64,000 nucleotides of DNA from positions 5,424-69,423 of the forward strand of contig JBAXPX010000001.1 of assembly GCA_037132055.1 (NCBI GenBank), in the 5' to 3' direction. How positions within the stretch are numbered: the first letter of the stretch is position 1; each line of letters opens with the position of its first letter. This stretch comes from a bacterium (GTDB lineage Bacteria > Patescibacteriota > Minisyncoccia > Phycocordibacterales > UBA9973). Shown piece by piece: positions 1,907 to 64,000 of the stretch. Made by a program: the position numbers and the translations under genes. Below the pieces are notes generated by a model, which was not told the origin of the DNA, did no database searches, and saw only the letters and a list, made by a program, of their open reading frames with translations.

Positions 1907-3418
1907 ATGCAAAAAAATATACAACAAAAGCAAATTGGAGATTTTATTAAAAATTTAAGAGAACAACGAGGCATGACGCAAGATGATTTTGCCAAAGCTC
2001 TCGCTACGTCTCAAAGTGCAGTCGCTCGAATGGAAAAAGGAGAACAAAATTTTTCCACTGAAATTTTATCAAAAATAAGTAACGTCCTCGAACACAAACT
2101 TGTTTGTATAAATGATTCGATTGATTTTGAAGTAAAGGGTGGAAAAAAATTGAGTGGTACTATTAAAACAAATTTTTCTAAAAATGGCTCTGTCGGACTT
2201 TTGTGTGCTTCCCTACTTAATAAAGGAACAACTACTCTTCACGGTATTGCTCGGATAGAAGAAGTGAACCGAGTGATTGAAATTTTAGAAAGCATTGGAG
2301 TACAAATAAAGTGGATTGATAACAATACTGTAATAATTACTCCTCCAAAACAGTTTAAATTAGAAAATATAAACGTAGAATCTGCTGTTAAAACTCGTTC
2401 TATCGTTATGTTTATGGGTCCCCTTATTCATTTTCTTTCATCTTTTTCTTTACCCCATGCCCAAGGATGCAATTTGGGCAAGCGTTCTATTTCTGCTCAT
2501 ATATATGCCTTGGATGAGCTTGGTATAAAAATCAAAACTACCAATAAAAGTTACGAAATAAGCACTAAAAAACTAAAACCTGCTGAAATAGTAATGTATG
2601 AAACAGGCGAAACTGCTTGTGAAAACATTTTGACGGCTTCAGCACTAATTCCAGGTAAAACGATTATTTTTTTTGCTAGCGCAAATTATATGGTACAAGA
2701 AATTTGTTTCTTCCTTGAAACCCTAGGAGTAAAGATAGACGGCATTGGCACTTCTACCTTAATCGTTCACGGAGTAAAAGAAATTAATAAAAATATTGAA
2801 TATTGGAATAGTGAAGACCCAATCGAATCAATGATGTTTATTTCTGCTTGCATTGTTACAGATTCAAAACTTACTATTACTAGATGCCCGATAGATTTTC
2901 TTTCCCTAGAACTTGAAAAGTTAAAAAGGATGAACTTAAAATATAAAGTTTCTAAAATATATTATTCATATAATGGTCGCACAAAACTGGCTGATATAAT
3001 CATTTTTCCAAGTAAATTAAAAGCTTTACCTGATAAAATTCACGCCAATAAATATCCAGGGATAAATATGGATAATTTGCCATTTTTTGTACCAATTGCG
3101 ATAAAAGCCAAGGGTCAAACAATGATCCATGACTTCTTTTATGAAAATAGGGCTATATATTTCACTGAATTAAATCGTTTAGGGGCAGATATCACTCTTG
3201 CCGACCCCCATAGAGTCTATATTCAAGGTGGAACGCCTCTAAAACCTGCTCAAGTTGTCTGTCCACCCGCCCTAAGACCTTCGATGATAATCCTTGTTTC
3301 GATGTTGGGAGCCCCAGGAACCTCAATCCTGCGTAATGTATATATGATTAATCGTGGTTATGAAGAAATTGCAGAACGATTAAACTCCATCGGCGCAGAT
3401 ATAAAAATATTGAAATAA
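1907..3418 (+). CDS. murA: XRE-type helix-turn-helix domain fused N-terminally to a UDP-N-acetylglucosamine 1-carboxyvinyltransferase (MurA)-like enolpyruvyl transferase
   Basis: The first ~65 aa are an XRE/Cro-like HTH (LREQRGMTQDDFAKALATSQSAVARMEKGE). The remainder has MurA hallmarks: KLSGTIKTNFSKNGSVGLLCASLL at the N-terminus, an active-site-like loop HAQGCNLGKR and the C-terminus NRGYEEIAERLNSIGADI. Confidence 0.7.
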   Translation: MQKNIQQKQIGDFIKNLREQRGMTQDDFAKALATSQSAVARMEKGEQNFSTEILSKISNVLEHKLVCINDSIDFEVKGGKKLSGTIKTNFSKNGSVGLLCASLLNKGTTTLHGIARIEEVNRVIEILESIGVQIKWIDNNTVIITPPKQFKLENINVESAVKTRSIVMFMGPLIHFLSSFSLPHAQGCNLGKRSISAHIYALDELGIKIKTTNKSYEISTKKLKPAEIVMYETGETACENILTASALIPGKTIIFFASANYMVQEICFFLETLGVKIDGIGTSTLIVHGVKEINKNIEYWNSEDPIESMMFISACIVTDSKLTITRCPIDFLSLELEKLKRMNLKYKVSKIYYSYNGRTKLADIIIFPSKLKALPDKIHANKYPGINMDNLPFFVPIAIKAKGQTMIHDFFYENRAIYFTELNRLGADITLADPHRVYIQGGTPLKPAQVVCPPALRPSMIILVSMLGAPGTSILRNVYMINRGYEEIAERLNSIGADIKILK

Positions 3419-4341
3419 TGAAAAAAAAGTCAAAAGTTATCGTAATACTTGGTCAAACGGCTACTGGAAAAAGTGATTTGGCTGTTAAAATAGCCCTTCG
3501 ACTATGCTCAGGACAAGCTCAAAAATACGGCGGAGAAATTATATCTGCTGATTCTAGGCAAGTTTATAAAGACCTTGATATTGGTACGGGCAAAATTACT
3601 AAAAAAGAAATGCAAGGTATTCCGCACCACTTGCTTGATGTAACAAACCCAAAGAAAAAATTTACAGTTGTGGAATATCAGAAAAAAGCAATCTCTGCTA
3701 TGGCAGAGATAATTAAAAAAGGCAAAATCCCTATCATTTGTGGAGGTACAGGTTTTTATATTGATGCCATAACAAAAGGAATAATTTTTCCAGAAATTCC
3801 ACCCAGTAATAAACTTCGAAAAATTCTAGAGAAAAAAACTACCCTACAACTTTTTAAAATGCTCCAAAAATTAGATAAAGCTCGAGCAAAAGATATTAAA
3901 AACAAAAACGAACAGAATAATAGAGTACGACTTATTCGAGCGATTGAAATTGCTAAAACTCTCGGTAAAGTTCCTAAAATCATCAAGGACTCCCCTCCGT
4001 ATAAATTTATAAAAATCGGTCTTTTTGCCCCAGCTGATATTCTAAAAGAAAAAATAAACGAAAGACTTTTTGCAAGAATCAAAGTCGGGATGATTAAGGA
4101 AATAGAAAATTTACATAAAAATGGTTTACCGTGGAAAAGAATGGAAGAACTCGGTCTTGAATATAGATATGTTTCATTATATTTACAAAACAAATTAACA
4201 AAAAAAGAAATGACCGAAAAACTAAATTCTGAAATTTATAAGTATGCAAAACGTCAAATGACATGGTTTAAAAGAGATAAAGATATAATTTGGTTTGATG
4301 CATCAAAAAAGAACTTTAAAAATGTATTACCATATCTATAG
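3418..4341 (+). CDS. miaA: tRNA dimethylallyltransferase MiaA
   Basis: P-loop GQTATGKS, followed by IISADSRQVYKDLDIGTGK and GIPHHLLD. Confidence 0.8.
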   Translation: MKKKSKVIVILGQTATGKSDLAVKIALRLCSGQAQKYGGEIISADSRQVYKDLDIGTGKITKKEMQGIPHHLLDVTNPKKKFTVVEYQKKAISAMAEIIKKGKIPIICGGTGFYIDAITKGIIFPEIPPSNKLRKILEKKTTLQLFKMLQKLDKARAKDIKNKNEQNNRVRLIRAIEIAKTLGKVPKIIKDSPPYKFIKIGLFAPADILKEKINERLFARIKVGMIKEIENLHKNGLPWKRMEELGLEYRYVSLYLQNKLTKKEMTEKLNSEIYKYAKRQMTWFKRDKDIIWFDASKKNFKNVLPYL

Positions 4342-60063: not shown

Positions 60064-60094
60064 TGTCCGTTAATTATATCAAAACTTATGTATT

Positions 60095-60155
60095 TTGCGG
60101 TGTGTATTGGACAAAGTTCGAATTTATTTCGAACTTTGTCCAATACACACCGCAA
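60095..60155. repeat. 61-bp perfect palindrome (28-bp arms, 5-nt centre) abutting the left inverted repeat of recombinase unit 1
   Basis: TTGCGGTGTGTATTGGACAAAGTTCGAA-tttat-TTCGAACTTTGTCCAATACACACCGCAA. Confidence 0.8.
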
Positions 60156-61790
60156 CATTTGGAAATTGGGTTCCCCGCGAAAAAATGCGTCGGGGCGAAG
60201 CACCGACGACTGGGCTGAATTCCCGCCAAACCCCGCCCCCGCAAGGATTTCCCACACGGCGGAGCGCTCTTCGTTACCAATACAAAATATATGAATCAAA
60301 CCAAAAAATTTTTTATATATACTCGCAAGTCGACGGACGACAAAGACCATCAGATTAGAAGTATTTCTGATCAGCTTTCCGAATTGAAAGAATTAGCGTT
60401 GAAAGAACGATTAGAAATAGTTGATATCTTTGTCGAGAAGCAGTCTGCCAAAATACCAGGCCGTCCGATATTTAACGAAATGCTAGAACGTATGGAGAAA
60501 GGCGAAGCATCTGGTATTTTGGCGTGGCATCCTGATAGACTTGCGAGAAACTCGGTAGATGGAGGAAAAGTCATCTACCTCGTTGATACCGAAGTTATAA
60601 AAGATTTAAAATTTTCGACTTTTTGGTTTGATCCGACACCGCAAGGCAAATTTATGCTTTCAATCGCTTTTTCCCAATCCAAATATTATGTGGATAATTT
60701 ATCAGAGAATATTAAACGCGGACAAAGAAACAAAGTGAAGGAAGGAATATGGCCTCAAAATGCTCCGCTTGGTTATGTAAATAAAGAAGGTGGTGGAATT
60801 GAGCCAAATATTATTCTTGCTCCACTTATTAAAAAAGCATTTGAGGCCTATGCAACAGGCAACTTCACTTTGCGACAAGTCCGCGATAAATTTAACGCAC
60901 TTGGTTTAACAGGAAAAAGCGATGGAGACCTTTCGGTGTCTAATTATCAAAAACTTTTAAGAAATCCGATTTTTACGGGAATGATGAGATATAACGGCGA
61001 AATTTACGAAGGCAAACACGAACCGATTATTTCAAAGAAACTTTTTGATTCCGTTGCCGAAGTGATGAGTAAAAAATCTAAATCGCATAGCAAAGGATTG
61101 AAGCCGTATATTTATCGGGGATTTTTCCGTTGTGACGAATGTGGCTGTTTTATCACTACCGAACAACAAAAAGGTCATAACTATTTACGATGTACGAAAC
61201 GGAAAAATCCTTGCAATCAGAAATATACACGAGAAGAACTCATCACTTCCCAAATACAAGAAGAAATCAAAAAAGTTTCTTTGCCACTCGATTGGTTAGA
61301 ATGGATGATTGGTGAAAATAAAAAAGACCAATCACCCGAAGTAGAATCGAGTACGCTTTTTGTTGATAATGTAAAATCCGACATTTCTCTTTTAGAATCT
61401 AAAATTGAGAAGCTGATGACGATGTATTTAGAAAATGCCCTAACACTCGACGAATATCGCGATATGAAAAATAAGCTGATGAACGAAAAACAGCTTCTCA
61501 AAGAGAAATTGTCGGATTTAGAACAAAAAGCGAATAATCGGTTCGAACTTACCGAAAAGTTTTTGAAATTCAATATGGAATTGGTAAACGATAGAACAAA
61601 TGAAGAAAATATTCATTTGTTCAAAAAAGTCGGTTCGAACTTTAGAATAAAAGATCGAACACTCCTTTTTGAGCGCTCCGCCGTGTGGGAAATCCTTGCG
61701 GGGGCGGGGTTTGGCGGGAATTCAGCCCAGTCGTCGGTGCTTCGCCCCGACGCATTTTTTCGCGGGGAACCCAATTTCCAAATGTTGCGG
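60150..61790 (+). mobile_element. Recombinase unit 1: a large serine recombinase gene bounded by 120-bp perfect inverted repeats (IR-L 60150-60269, IR-R 61671-61790). IR-R abuts the 3' end of tRNA-Ser.
   Basis: The two 120-bp segments are exact reverse complements of each other. The recombinase ORF starts 21 nt after IR-L and reads into IR-R. Confidence 0.6.
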
Positions 61791-61814
61791 AGGGTACAGG
61801 ATTTGAACCTGTGA
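60291..61814 (+). CDS. Large serine recombinase (resolvase N-terminal domain, recombinase domain, zinc ribbon); its C-terminal ~48 codons are encoded by IR-R
   Basis: YTRKSTDDKD (catalytic Ser), WHPDRLARN, the recombinase-domain stretch LLRNPIFTGMMRYNGEIYEGKHEPIIS, and the zinc ribbon CDECGCF…YLRCTKRK. Confidence 0.75.
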   Translation: MNQTKKFFIYTRKSTDDKDHQIRSISDQLSELKELALKERLEIVDIFVEKQSAKIPGRPIFNEMLERMEKGEASGILAWHPDRLARNSVDGGKVIYLVDTEVIKDLKFSTFWFDPTPQGKFMLSIAFSQSKYYVDNLSENIKRGQRNKVKEGIWPQNAPLGYVNKEGGGIEPNIILAPLIKKAFEAYATGNFTLRQVRDKFNALGLTGKSDGDLSVSNYQKLLRNPIFTGMMRYNGEIYEGKHEPIISKKLFDSVAEVMSKKSKSHSKGLKPYIYRGFFRCDECGCFITTEQQKGHNYLRCTKRKNPCNQKYTREELITSQIQEEIKKVSLPLDWLEWMIGENKKDQSPEVESSTLFVDNVKSDISLLESKIEKLMTMYLENALTLDEYRDMKNKLMNEKQLLKEKLSDLEQKANNRFELTEKFLKFNMELVNDRTNEENIHLFKKVGSNFRIKDRTLLFERSAVWEILAGAGFGGNSAQSSVLRPDAFFRGEPNFQMLRRVQDLNL

Positions 61815-61874
61815 TCCACTTTCGCGGATTCCGGTTTTCGAAACCGGCGCCTTCAACCTCTCAGCCAACCCTCC
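61788..61874 (-). tRNA. tRNA-Ser (anticodon CGA), long variable arm
   Basis: Reverse complement GGAGGGTTGGCTGAGAGGTTGAAGGCGCCGGTTTCGAAAACCGGAATCCGCGAAAGTGGATCACAGGTTCAAATCCTGTACCCTCCG. The D-arm matches the type-II Ser tRNA pattern. Confidence 0.75.
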
Positions 61875-61936
61875 CCTATAATAAAATCTAACATTTTTTG
61901 CGATTTTTTCAAAAATAATATAGTATTAGAAAATAT

Positions 61937-62008
61937 GGCCCTATCGTCTAACGGTTAGGACATCGGCTTTTCAAGCCGGTAATCCGGGTTCGATTCCCGG
62001 TAGGGTCA
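61937..62008 (+). tRNA. tRNA-Glu (anticodon UUC)
   Basis: GGCCCTATCGTCTAACGGTTAGGACATCGGCTTTTCAAGCCGGTAATCCGGGTTCGATTCCCGGTAGGGTCA. Confidence 0.75.
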
Positions 62009-63668
62009 CCTAAAGAGAGATTGTGGAAATTAGAAATATGGAGCGGGTTTTCAAAATGAAAACTCGCACTGGGTAGCCCGCTTCCGCCCTTTGCGGAAGC
62101 GACAAAATCCCAAATCTCGCCAGAATGCATATGAATTGTTTTGTCCTTGATTTCAGGGTTAGAGCCAATTTTTTGAAAAAATTGCTTCCATTCAATTTGA
62201 TTGTCAGTTTTTTCCAAATCAACGGCTTCTTTCAAGGACAAAACCAAAATCCGCAAGGGTTCGATCCAATACTTTCTCTGTTGTCCAAAATCTTTCAAAC
62301 TTTCCTCAATTCCAGCTTTTTGACGAAGTAAAATATCTTTTCGTTCCAAATATTGTGAGCGTTCAATATCTCCGTCTAAATATATAGAAACAAGTTTATC
62401 TAGTTTTTCTTTAATTTCGGAAAGTTCAGATTTTAGATTTTGGACAACATTTCCTTTTTCTGAAATTGATTCTTGTTCCCATTCGTCAATTTTCTTTTCC
62501 ATTTTTTCAATTTCAGAAAAAGGAATTGACGCTTTTTGAAGCGAAGTTTTGATTTGTTCGGAGAGTGTGGATTCTGAAAGATACGGCTGAGAGCAAAAAC
62601 CTTTCTTTTTTGTGCAACGATAATAAATATAACGAGTACCAAAACGATTGATAGAATATTGAGCCGTAATCATACTTCCACACTCGCCACATTTGGCAAA
62701 ACCGAGAAAATGAAATGGATGAGCGATTTTAGATTTTCTCGGTTTTTGCCGAGACTTCAAAACTTTCTGCACTGCTTCAAAAAGTGTCGGAGAAAGTATT
62801 GGTTCAAAGCTTCCATTGTGCCATTCGTTATGATGTTTGATAAATCCTAAATATGCACGATTGGTAAGTAATCGCACAATGCAAGCTTTGGCAAGTGGCT
62901 TTCCTATTTTTGTGACAAGTCCTAAATCCGCCAAATACTTCGCTAGTCCTTCAATAGTGTAAATATTTTTTGAATATTCTTCAAAAGCTCTTACTACAAT
63001 TTTTGAATATACAGGATGAGGTTCAATAGTTTTAGTTTTTAAGTTATTTATATATCCATACGGAGCTTTTGTCAGCCATTCCCCACGGCGAAGTTTTTGG
63101 CGGATTCCTCGTTTTACATTTTCAACCAAGTTGTCAGAAAAATATTTGGATTGTCCGAAAGCCACTTGCAACATGAATTTCCCTTGCGGAGTTGGTTCAA
63201 ACCAAAACTGCGGAAAGCGCAAAGAAACAATTTTGCCAGTATCAACAAGATAGATAACTTTTCCACCATCAACACTATTTCTCGCTAATCGGTCAGGATG
63301 CCATGCTAATATTCCATTTGCTTCACCTTTTTCTATCTTATCTATCATTCTGGCAAATTGTTTTCGTCCTGTGGTCTTTGCGCTTTTCGATTCGGTAAAA
63401 GTTTCTTTTACTGAAATATTTTCTCTGCGAGCATATTCTTTCAATTCAAAAAGTTGAGCTTCAATACTCATTACTTGTTTATCGTCATCTTCCGTTGATT
63501 TTCTCGCGTAGAGAAAATATTTGTTTTGATTTGAGGAATTCATATGCATTCTGGCGAGATTTGGGATTTTGTCGCTTCCGCAAAGGGCGGAAGCGGGCTA
63601 CCCAGTGCGAGTTTTCATTTTGAAAACCCGCTCCATATTTCTAATTTCCACAATCTCTCTTTAGGTGA
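62006..63668 (-). mobile_element. Recombinase unit 2: a paralogous large serine recombinase gene bounded by ~132-bp perfect inverted repeats (IR-L 62006-62137, IR-R 63537-63668). IR-L begins within the last 3 nt of tRNA-Glu(UUC).
   Basis: Exact reverse-complement identity over about 130 bp. The repeat covers the recombinase start codon (ATGCATATG) at one end and the tRNA 3' end (TCACC) at the other. Confidence 0.6.
62138..63549 (-). CDS. Large serine recombinase, paralog of the 60291-61814 gene. The track's ORF extends to 61948 across IR-L and the tRNA; the true stop is uncertain.
   Basis: YARKSTEDDDKQ (catalytic Ser), GILAWHPDRLARNSVDGGKVIYLVDT (identical to the stretch in unit 1), recombinase domain, and the zinc ribbon CGECGSMITAQ…YYRCTKKK. 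Confidence 0.7.
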
Positions 63669-63712
63669 ACTAATTATATCATTTGCACGAATTTTTTACG
63701 AGAAAAACAAAT

Positions 63713-63790
63713 AGCGTGCCTCGTGCGTGCTACGCACGCCTGTGTGATACACAGTTTTCTCCAAAGGAGAAAACGAGGCACGCAATACGC
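63713..63790 (+). other. Perfect four-way-junction (cruciform) sequence: an 11-bp outer stem enclosing three triloop hairpins
   Basis: GCGTGCCTCGT [GCGTGC-tac-GCACGC] c [CTGTGT-gat-ACACAG] [TTTTCTCC-aaa-GGAGAAAA] ACGAGGCACGC. Confidence 0.55.
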
Positions 63791-63860
63791 CCCAACGGCT
63801 CAAATACTGGGAAATGAGCCGTTCAAGAAAAAATGGACTCGGTTTTCGAAACAATTTTGC

Positions 63861-64000
63861 GGGAGGAAGGATTCGCAAAACCGAGACTAATGTTTTTGAA
63901 ATTCGACGGGATTTGGGTTTCCGCCCCGCAGGAGGGTGCGGGAGGAATGCGGGGCGAATTTAATTTAAGCCTTTTAAAATTAACATATTTTTGATATGAT
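63861..64000 (+). ncRNA. ssrA: Possible 5' portion of tmRNA (ssrA) running off the window end; tentative
   Basis: ATTCGACGGGATTTG (63901-63915) is identical to the conserved 5' P2a segment of canonical tmRNA (AUUCGACGGGAUUUG). A pseudoknot-like CCGCCCCGCA…TGCGGGGCG follows, and GGGAGGAAGGATTCG is a possible but atypical 5' end. No GGGG acceptor start or 3' end is visible. Confidence 0.3.

Follow-up and report, generated by a model that had tools for sequence, protein, structure and literature searches.

A Structured Segment next to a Serine Recombinase Unit

What is the GC-rich, self-complementary segment found at positions 63669–64000 of the window (the whole stretch of 64,000 nucleotides analyzed here), immediately outside "arm A" of a unit that encodes a large serine recombinase (LSR), and what might it do there? 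The earlier note had read part of it as the 5′ region of a transfer-messenger RNA (tmRNA) gene, preceded by a cruciform. Judged by its homologs in related loci, the stretch from 63669 to ~63960 is instead the recombinase-proximal arm, hereafter arm B, of an inverted repeat of ~0.3 kb that brackets a gene cassette, and by analogy with these loci the partner arm of the window copy would lie beyond position 64000. Taken together with the attachment-site (att) logic and with the barrier/terminator and homology-arm roles discussed below, this identification forms a joint reading to which we assign a probability of roughly 0.55. The features of the segment are as follows.

63669–63712, minus strand: half-site "b" of an attP-like site with the predicted recombinase-2 promoter; the stretch most conserved across distant loci, where it is found in inverted pairs
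63713–63785, both strands: cloverleaf, a perfect four-way junction of an outer stem and three triloop hairpins (minimum free energy [MFE] folding, covariance model R1)
63794–63823, unstranded: hairpin module AACGGCTC/GAGCCGTT, optional, which otherwise collinear arms either contain or lack as a clean indel of ~35 nt
63838–63885, unstranded: long hairpin ("hairpin 3") CTCGGTTTT(C)G...CGCAAAACCGAG, with a G-rich internal loop GCGGGAGGAAGGA
63898–63921, plus strand: G/T-rich linker GAAATTCGRCGGGATTYGGGTTTCC, conserved in the aligned arms and holding the "tmRNA-like" 15-mer
63922–63956, unstranded: G-loop hairpin, with a conserved G-rich loop of 17–21 nt (GGAGGG..GGGAGGAAT) and a freely covarying stem
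63957–64000, plus strand: inner arm edge or cassette start with a promoter-like site inside (end of conservation, promoter scan)

The Segment Belongs to a Family of Inverted Repeats

One genome per species was scanned for the recombinase family, which yielded >583 loci, all in Patescibacteria-type metagenome-assembled genomes, of which 80 were kept. Self-comparison of the kept loci revealed a repeat of ~115–155 nt around the recombinase gene in ~70 of the 80, as well as, in ~24 loci with enough upstream DNA, a second repeat of 150–430 nt (96–100% identical) that shares a few bases with the first and encloses 1.1–6.1 kb of variable cargo directly upstream of the LSR gene. In blastn comparisons, the segment 63669–64000 matches exactly these second repeats, always as inverted pairs (in L011, L018, L016, L051, and other loci), and what follows the homologous segments is ordinary cargo genes, not the body of a tmRNA, before the segment recurs in inverted orientation. 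Because the homologs come as inverted pairs around cargo, with one arm facing the LSR, the window segment is assigned to proximal arm B. At L011, whose recombinase is 78% identical to recombinase 2 of the window, the order runs tRNA-Ser, 297-nt arm, two cargo genes, 297-nt arm, 130-nt arm, recombinase, 130-nt arm, and tRNA-Glu, and the repeat extends ~40 nt beyond the G-loop hairpin.

The same arrangement was met in metagenomes, where a first scan using TTCGACGGGATTTGGGTTTCC gave 0 matches and a scan with the G-loop motif retrieved 95 stretches, many of them carrying the motif as a plus/minus pair 1.5–4 kb apart. One arm faces the 5′ end of a recombinase gene in ~20 of these 95 stretches, and host DNA lies on the outer side of those arms that lack a recombinase and have long outer flanks. 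Arms are 96–100% identical within an element and 74–92% identical between elements. An exact-protein look-up with recombinase 2 and two spurious open reading frames (ORFs) of the segment returned no match, and the contigs found through the neighboring 253-aa protein all stop at repeat arms; the loci retrieved include none from the strain of the window. Short-read contigs of the same species (L001–L010) likewise end within arms, for instance ~210 nt past a PAP2-like gene in L001 and inside the arm A′ in L003, and many metagenome contigs (among L091–L185) consist exactly of a partial arm, cargo, and a partial arm. Short-read assemblies of such genomes are thus systematically interrupted by these repeats.

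As regards the fold, MFE predictions with RNA and DNA parameters return, on both strands, a 10–11-bp outer stem (63714–63784) around three perfect hairpins (GCGTGC/TAC/GCACGC, CTGTGT/GAT/ACACAG, and TTT(T)CTCC/AAA/GGAGAAA(A)), in agreement with the four-way junction with three triloop hairpins that had been described from the letters of the sequence. The two further long hairpins reported alongside it were recovered at 63794–63823 (DNA-fold z = −5.0) and at 63838–63885, where CTCGGTTTT pairs with AAAACCGAG, and the G/C pairing noticed after the 15-mer corresponds to the hairpin in which CGCCCCGCA (63922–63930) pairs with TGCGGGGCG (63948–63956) around a 17-nt loop, GGAGGGTGCGGGAGGAA. The region as a whole has fold z-scores of −5.7 on the plus strand and −8.0 on the minus strand with RNA parameters, and the four-way junction has z-scores of −9.1 and −9.9 on the two strands with DNA parameters, with 0 of 200 shuffles folding as well; the final ~40 nt of the window are AT-rich. 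A coding role for the small ORFs that cross the arm was considered and rejected, as homologs differ by indels of 1–2 nt.

The tmRNA Question

Could 63690–64000 nonetheless hold the 5′ region of a tmRNA (ssrA) gene, perhaps a permuted one, that serves as an integration site? This idea could draw on the 15-mer ATTCGACGGGATTTG, an exact match to the 5′ region of Escherichia coli ssrA, on G/C-rich alternative pairings after this 15-mer, and on the ssrA-specific serine-recombinase islands known from Dehalococcoides. However, ARAGORN, which covers permuted forms, found six tRNAs and no tmRNA in the window, and the Rfam tmRNA model had no match in the window at gathering thresholds; nor did a tmRNA emerge from 63400–64000 at E ≤ 10, on both strands and with truncated matches allowed, where the matches obtained (IsrM, ar14, Lacto-phage-1, and snoRNAs) all lie far below gathering scores and were discarded as chance. 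The earlier note had itself named a failure of the covariance model on both strands as the outcome that would speak against a tmRNA, and this is the outcome that we obtained.

The 15-mer is indeed present, in a single copy (63901–63915), yet it is not conserved: it reads ATTCGGCGGGATTCG or ATTCGGCGGGATTTG in nearly all homologs, the homologous arms (30+ segments) following ATTCGGCGGGATT(C/T)G, since the A at 63907 is found only in the window among aligned arms, the others having G, and position 63914 is C or T. Likewise, the picture of a tmRNA gene continuing past the window edge is not borne out, because homology with 30+ related arms ends at ~63957–63961, ~45 nt past the motif. Its likeness to tmRNAs (Rfam clan CL00001) is limited to the 15-nt 5′ identity, as it lacks an acceptor or T-arm, a tag reading frame, and a model score, and it forms an inverted repeat with two copies per element, followed by cargo genes. 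The notion of a tmRNA as integration hotspot gives way, for its part, to tRNA genes as targets (tRNA-Glu and tRNA-Ser in the window), the att cores being tRNA 3′ ends. We thus regard the tmRNA reading as refuted, with next to no probability left to it. The hedge that had accompanied it, namely that the cruciform might be a separate structure tied to the recombination units, fares better, as the segment opens with an att-type half-site.

Attachment-Site Logic of the Recombinase Units

The units to which this half-site belongs comprise the following features.

60092–60158: "empty" b′/b palindrome of unit 1, with 31-nt arms and a 5-nt spacer, holding no cargo and no structured modules
60291–61814, plus strand: large serine recombinase 1 (unit 1), with Pfam Resolvase, Recombinase, and Zn_ribbon_recom domains
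61787–61874: tRNA-Ser abutting the unit-1 arm (ARAGORN)
61937–62010, plus strand: tRNA-Glu(UUC), whose 3′ end forms a tRNA|core|a junction (attL-like) with arm A′ (ARAGORN, Rfam)
61948–63549, minus strand: large serine recombinase 2, with the same three Pfam domains (ORF list)
62006–62137: arm A′ of unit 2, overlapping the 3′ end of tRNA-Glu
63537–63668, minus strand: repeat arm A, made of the recombinase-2 5′ untranslated region (UTR) and the first 13 nt of the gene; inverted copy of 62006–62137
63664–63668, minus strand: presumed crossover core TCACC of the internal attP-like site M, at the outer end of arm A

Both recombinases pass the Pfam cutoffs of PF00239, PF07508, and PF13408; the recombinase is ~25% identical to phage serine integrases and matches solved structures over the N-terminal domains only. 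Each recombinase gene is enclosed in an inverted repeat, one arm of which consists of the 5′ UTR and start codon, while the second arm forms the 3′ end of the gene and abuts the 3′ end of a tRNA that reads into the arm. In unit 2, the two arms (62006–62137 and 63537–63668) are 132 nt long, 100% complementary, and 1399 nt apart; in unit 1 (60139–60269 and 61671–61801), they are 131 nt long at 97%. The identity between the two A arms begins exactly at the core 63664–63668, and the same TCACC also ends tRNA-Glu at 62006–62010.

When the junctions were aligned in 19 loci, three types emerged that share a core of 4–9 nt (TCAC(C), CCAC, GCAC, CCGC...) corresponding to the discriminator and trailer of the tRNA: an internal site M (b|core|a), a site R at the 3′ end of the recombinase gene (tRNA|core|a), and a site L at the far end (b|core|x), in which x often carries a hairpin and a T-run and which we read as the native terminator of the tRNA. 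The internal site of the window, b|core|a, spans 63664–63712 at the junction of arms B and A. Its b half of ~22 nt, GGTTCGNGCAAAGG..., resembles a tRNA T-arm (window motif GTTCGNGCAAA), and in most of the 19 junctions a TAnnAT hexamer lies 4–5 nt from the core. The window version of this hexamer is the extended −10 element TGATATAAT, read on the minus strand at 63673–63681; such an element had been pointed out one base off, at 63672–63680, and its presence stands, together with its conservation. That a −10-like hexamer is conserved beside the core makes the call of a recombinase promoter plausible. All three sites are visible in the window for unit 1, with L = TTCGAACTTTGTCCAATACACA|CCGCAA|AATACATAAG, M = the same b|CCGCAACAT|TTGGAAATT, and R = tRNA-Ser ...CCTGTACCCT|CCGCAACAT|TTGG, and M and R are visible for unit 2, whose L site would fall beyond the window.

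From the sequences of these junctions, the three-site pattern looks like the signature of recombination between an attP (b|core|a) and an attB (tRNA|core|x), to which an intact, inverted attP-like copy is added inside the element. On this basis, the elements may integrate by attP × attB recombination from a circle that carries a second, inverted attP, in which case the flanks of this second attP, that is a (~130 nt) and b with its modules (150–430 nt), would become duplicated at the element ends. That integration has recurred at the same target is indicated by remnants of tRNA 3′ ends in tandem arrays (L051) and by junctions of the hybrid type b2|core|a1 (L043). Recombinase fragments covering only residues ~369–467 also lie between successive cassettes (L094, 2480–3681; L145, ~3328–3624), which suggests arrays with decayed older recombinase genes.

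The minimal element, represented by unit 1, is ~1.7 kb long; the LSR is its sole gene, and genes for directionality or transfer are lacking. Because the b arms of unit 1 are just 31 nt long around 5 nt, the structured modules appear to come with the cargo, and the minimal unit needs none of them. The empty palindrome of unit 1 (60092–60158) may be a ready docking site or a minimal form of the element. Both recombinase ORFs continue through the second arm into the antisense of the tRNA gene (61948–62137 and 61671–61814), so that the last ~40–60 recombinase codons (~60 in recombinase 2) are the reverse complement of the gene's own 5′ UTR and of the tRNA; tblastn identity in relatives usually ends at about residues 484–496, which makes the recombinase C-terminus uncertain.

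Conservation of the Structured Modules

Beyond the b half-site, the arms are mosaics of modules, which were found in arms only: they occur neither elsewhere in the window nor in 1 Mb of related loci outside the arms, and neither the window nor the arms of seven relatives gave a match at Rfam 15 gathering scores to which they could be assigned. The covariance model R1 recovered the cloverleaf at 83 places (54 distinct sequences), and every homolog folds individually into the same junction. In a structure-blind alignment, 94.7% of the cells are paired, versus 32–63% when the partners are slid against each other, and compensatory (double) changes affect 17 of the 24 cloverleaf pairs; 0 of 500 shuffles attained the observed score. 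Hairpin 3 is conserved in the window and in L011, L016, L018, L019, L021, and L051, with fully compensated stems in L161 (CGAGCAAAAGCA/TGCTTTTGCTCG) and L148 (CGAAG/CTTCG), and the G-loop hairpin keeps GGAGG(G)G..GGGGAGGAAT within at least eight different stems. The palindromes were also considered as operators for a dimeric helix-turn-helix protein, given that cassettes often begin with an XRE-like gene, an option rejected as the main explanation on the grounds that the three palindromes and the nested outer stem covary as a junction.

Does this conservation call for a function at all? The arms might have none of their own and be passive by-products, in which gene conversion and hairpin-templated repair would keep identity and palindromes. 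Such a view agrees with the homogenization of arms within elements, with the decay of some hairpins (in L176, L142, L123, and L158), with the optional status of one module, and with a unit 1 devoid of modules. It is harder to reconcile with a module architecture kept in arms that differ by at least 25% through many independent double changes, with loop motifs that remain constant over at least eight stem variants, and with the persistence of GC-rich blocks of 250 nt in AT-rich, streamlined genomes of ~1 Mb. In L161, L108, L131, and L159, moreover, the module order is preserved although the paired arms of a cassette have diverged in sequence, which speaks for selection on the modules as such and against mere homogenization; a purely passive origin is hence distinctly unlikely in our view. 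The arms of L161 (860–1200 and 3380–3680; the same element is present in L108, L131, and L159) are ~70–75% alike and combine a type-2 with a type-1 cloverleaf and different hairpin-3 stems; one of the two is truncated within the G-loop hairpin, which looks like the trace of an arm replacement by recombination in the conserved linker.

If the modules are selected, the question becomes whether they act as RNA or as DNA. Under the first option, the arm would be a structured RNA (a cis-acting leader, a 3′ UTR, or a small RNA) that regulates the cassette or the recombinase and whose GGAGG (or CCUCC) loops would bind ribosomes, mRNAs, or a protein. Helices kept by compensatory change and loops conserved while stems vary are what such an RNA would show, and the transcript of the cassette operon probably includes the distal copy at its end. 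Counts over whole arms also favor the plus strand, which has the more stable fold in 30 of 31 arms and 249 G-U pairs versus 62 for the minus strand (73 versus 26 distinct internal G-U events). We nevertheless rejected a strand assignment from these counts, as the excess is compositional and stems from the G/T-rich flanks: the cloverleaf alignment, which was fitted to the structure, contains among its ~1570 cells 1489 Watson–Crick, 38 G-T, 25 A-C, and 18 other pairs, that is, G-T and A-C are about equally rare. Few wobble pairs, no excess of G-T over A-C, loops of 3–4 nt, and equal stability on both strands lead us to suggest, from sequence comparison, that selection on the cloverleaf is strand-symmetric, which would point to a structure at the DNA level or to use on both strands. 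Besides, the promoter scan found no promoter reading into the arm, the conserved one at the outer end firing away from it, the G-loop module is flipped in several arms, Rfam offers no match, one module is dispensable, and unit 1 works without any. A role as structured RNA accordingly strikes us as unlikely.

Under the second option, the element would be a single-stranded-DNA (ssDNA) device, in which the internal site (B.core.A) splints the element ends (A′ and B′) into a dumbbell. Linear ssDNA acquired by competence would thereby be circularized without a directionality factor, the duplex stem rebuilding attP and the recombinase promoter; the hairpins and the cloverleaf would be single-strand initiation signals, and the inverted duplication would supply a functional copy on either strand. 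Several features are consistent with such a device: the long arms of the internal inverted attP end precisely at the core, the minimal element consists of the LSR only, the near-perfect identity of the arms is as expected from heteroduplex repair in a folded stem, the cloverleaf stems are Watson–Crick only with 3–4-nt loops and fold equally as DNA on both strands, and the free orientation of the modules would matter little, as each strand holds both versions. Many arms, moreover, carry mini-hairpins of the GCGAAGC type, which are exceptionally stable in DNA. (Taken together, the hairpins that end in GCGAAGC or in C(TTCG)G, the latter an exceptionally stable motif in RNA, are found in L016, L021, L103, L110, L113, and others, as well as in the L012, L015, and L051 arms.) Yet the substrate of LSRs is duplex DNA, and a dumbbell that recombined with attB would leave hairpin-capped chromosome ends unless the complementary strand were made first. 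Local hairpins would also compete with the long-range pairing of the arms, competence, on which Patescibacteria depend in general, is an assumption for this organism, and a double-stranded circle with two attP sites explains the layout more simply. We consider such a device rather improbable, and still more doubtful is the broader conjecture that the double inverted repeat is a transfer device of bacteria that exchange DNA only by natural transformation, in which an attP splint would let the element circularize without recombinase or directionality factor and the modules would act as single-strand priming signals.

Possible Roles of the Arms

The reading that we favor, in which arm B is both a barrier or terminator and a stretch of homology, can be set out as follows. 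The first ~45 nt of the segment would be the LSR half-site together with a recombinase promoter that fires away from the arm, and the following ~250 nt of GC-rich, self-complementary modules would act via their fold as a barrier between the divergent promoters of the recombinase and the cassette, the distal copy of the arm serving as 3′ terminator or stabilizer of the cassette operon. In this regard, the predicted leftward −10 element TGATATAAT fires into arm A, away from the segment, and the promoter scan returned a rightward promoter-like site at 63973–64000 (TTTAAA-16-TGATATGAT, with TG-n-TATGAT) directed toward the cassette, so that the proximal arm sits between two predicted promoters. 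A T-rich run follows the G-loop hairpin on the plus (inward) strand in most arms, hairpin 3 is flanked on both sides and both strands by T/A runs located 4–7 nt beyond the stem, which makes it a candidate bidirectional terminator, and in 18 of 25 cassettes the cargo reads outward from the LSR side toward and into the distal arm. It is this combination of promoter placement, T-runs, and cargo direction that favors the barrier/terminator role.

Near-identical arms would also provide homology for occasional inversion and for swapping cassettes from one element to another. At least three b classes occur in combination with the same modules, and close arms enclose unrelated cargo, which, together with the identity of arms within an element, favors the homology-arm role. 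Judged from their sequences, we read the cargo as including restriction-modification systems, a PemK-like toxin, XRE regulators, an ABC transporter, and a pilin. In eight loci (L015, L033, L038, L050, L051, L059, L066, and L071) a protein of ~70–90 aa is the first cassette gene by the proximal arm, as is often the case; it looks like an XRE-family helix-turn-helix protein and may be a candidate regulator or directionality factor.

Several observations weigh against this reading. With regard to inversion, the contig pairs L150/L153 and L128/L185 carry one cargo in both orientations next to the same flank, but these pairs could reflect assembler ambiguity, the repeats being longer than the reads, and the 18:1 bias in cargo orientation suggests that inversion is rare. 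With regard to termination, a consensus terminator scan returned only two weak sites, both inside the cloverleaf and none at hairpin 3 or the G-loop hairpin, and T-runs 4–7 nt off the stems and a 17-nt G-loop depart from the usual layout of an intrinsic terminator, in which a GC-rich stem of at least 5 bp with a short loop has its U-tract beginning 0–2 nt downstream; the conserved G-rich loops and the four-way junction would both be left unexplained by termination. Stems as nearly pure in Watson–Crick pairs as those of the cloverleaf would be uncommon in an RNA element, and some arms carry the G-loop module in reverse orientation. As for the att logic, searching the x sequences beside a tRNA across 185 loci for an empty site retrieved only another occupied site, and a circular junction is not separable from tandem arrays: in L110, L143, and L155 the 3′ end of the LSR gene faces an arm and the contigs end inside arm A, where a tandem array, a flipped recombinase, and a circle are indistinguishable, and a search of IMG/VR for a circular form or a phage context gave one distant match at a contig end. 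Finally, the partner arm of the window copy is placed outside the visible sequence by analogy only, and every functional statement on the arm is inferred.

Relation to Known Systems

How does such an element compare with those already described? With the large serine integrase elements and prophages (of phiC31, Bxb1, TP901-1, or A118 type) and with tRNA/tmRNA-targeting islands, such as the ssrA-specific ones of Dehalococcoides, it has in common the Resolvase, Recombinase, and zinc-ribbon domains (at ~25% identity to phage serine integrases), hybrid sites with a short core at a tRNA 3′ end, tandem accretion at one target, and variable cargo such as restriction-modification and toxin genes. Unlike them, it holds an intact inverted attP-like site, has flanks of 130 nt and 150–430 nt duplicated at its ends, encloses the recombinase gene wholly in an inverted repeat, such that the 3′ end of the gene is the reverse complement of its own 5′ UTR, and displays no evident directionality factor, with a minimal element of ~1.7 kb. 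Known serine integrases need only sites of 40–50 bp, so that structured arms are unexpected.

Invertible segments of the Hin/Gin/Cin/Pin type are alike in that a serine recombinase gene lies next to an inverted-repeat segment (as with the B unit here) or inside it (as with the A unit). The C segment of phage P1, with its inverted repeats of 0.6 kb and cix sites at their outer ends, resembles our elements in the presumed crossover at the outer ends of long repeats and in the hints of both orientations. The differences are that the recombinase here is a large one, not a small Fis-dependent invertase, that the sites follow an attP/attB/attL/attR logic, that cargo orientation is biased, and that hairpin modules are nested in the arms. 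The yeast 2-micron plasmid (FLP/FRT) offers another parallel, as the predicted circle, which is deduced from the junctions, would bear two inverted repeats of ~0.4 kb with a site at the center of each, separating a recombinase from a cargo segment; FLP, however, is a tyrosine recombinase, and the predicted circle has no known replication origin. Integron attC sites, the attP of CTX phage, the inverted terminal repeats of parvoviruses, and G4-type initiation signals are similar in the conservation of structure over sequence, in multi-way junctions formed by nested palindromes within repeats, and in variable gene cassettes. These ssDNA sites are served by tyrosine recombinases, Rep nickases, or primases, none of which is linked to our elements, and the likeness is one of resemblance only.

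In the literature searched, Patescibacteria elements that combine a serine recombinase with such repeats are nowhere described, and a serine-integrase element that targets tRNA genes, keeps an inverted attP inside, and has structured cassette arms is apparently an undescribed combination. Much of bacterial diversity belongs to the Patescibacteria (the Candidate Phyla Radiation), about whose gene exchange little is known. With >580 loci and a self-enclosing repeat that is near-universal among those inspected, the element would represent a major, apparently undescribed design of mobile element, and its arms add a family of structure-conserved, Watson–Crick-only modules that lies outside Rfam. 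If the site logic is true, each locus would offer a ready attP/attB pair for a serine integrase of ~480 residues, which would be of interest for genome engineering; if the ssDNA transfer reading were true, the arms would constitute a new class of structure-conserved DNA elements and the whole an integron-like cassette platform of the Candidate Phyla Radiation.

Further Observations around the Units

Relative to tRNA-Ser, the block formed by tRNA-Glu, the recombinase unit, and the cassette is inverted between L011 (7327–11596) and the window (61787–62010). In L011, the far end of the cassette (x, with the terminator) abuts the spacer, and in the window the spacer has the promoter-like site TTGCGA-N-TATAGT before tRNA-Glu. 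This difference in orientation suggests either a large inversion or an element that carries tRNA-Glu. Lastly, Rfam matches near the units include a LOOT RNA and an RNase P RNA in L019 (1423–1535 and 12966–13307), a group I intron in L018 (10975–11257), and a DUF805b motif inside the cassette of L016 (8696–8730).

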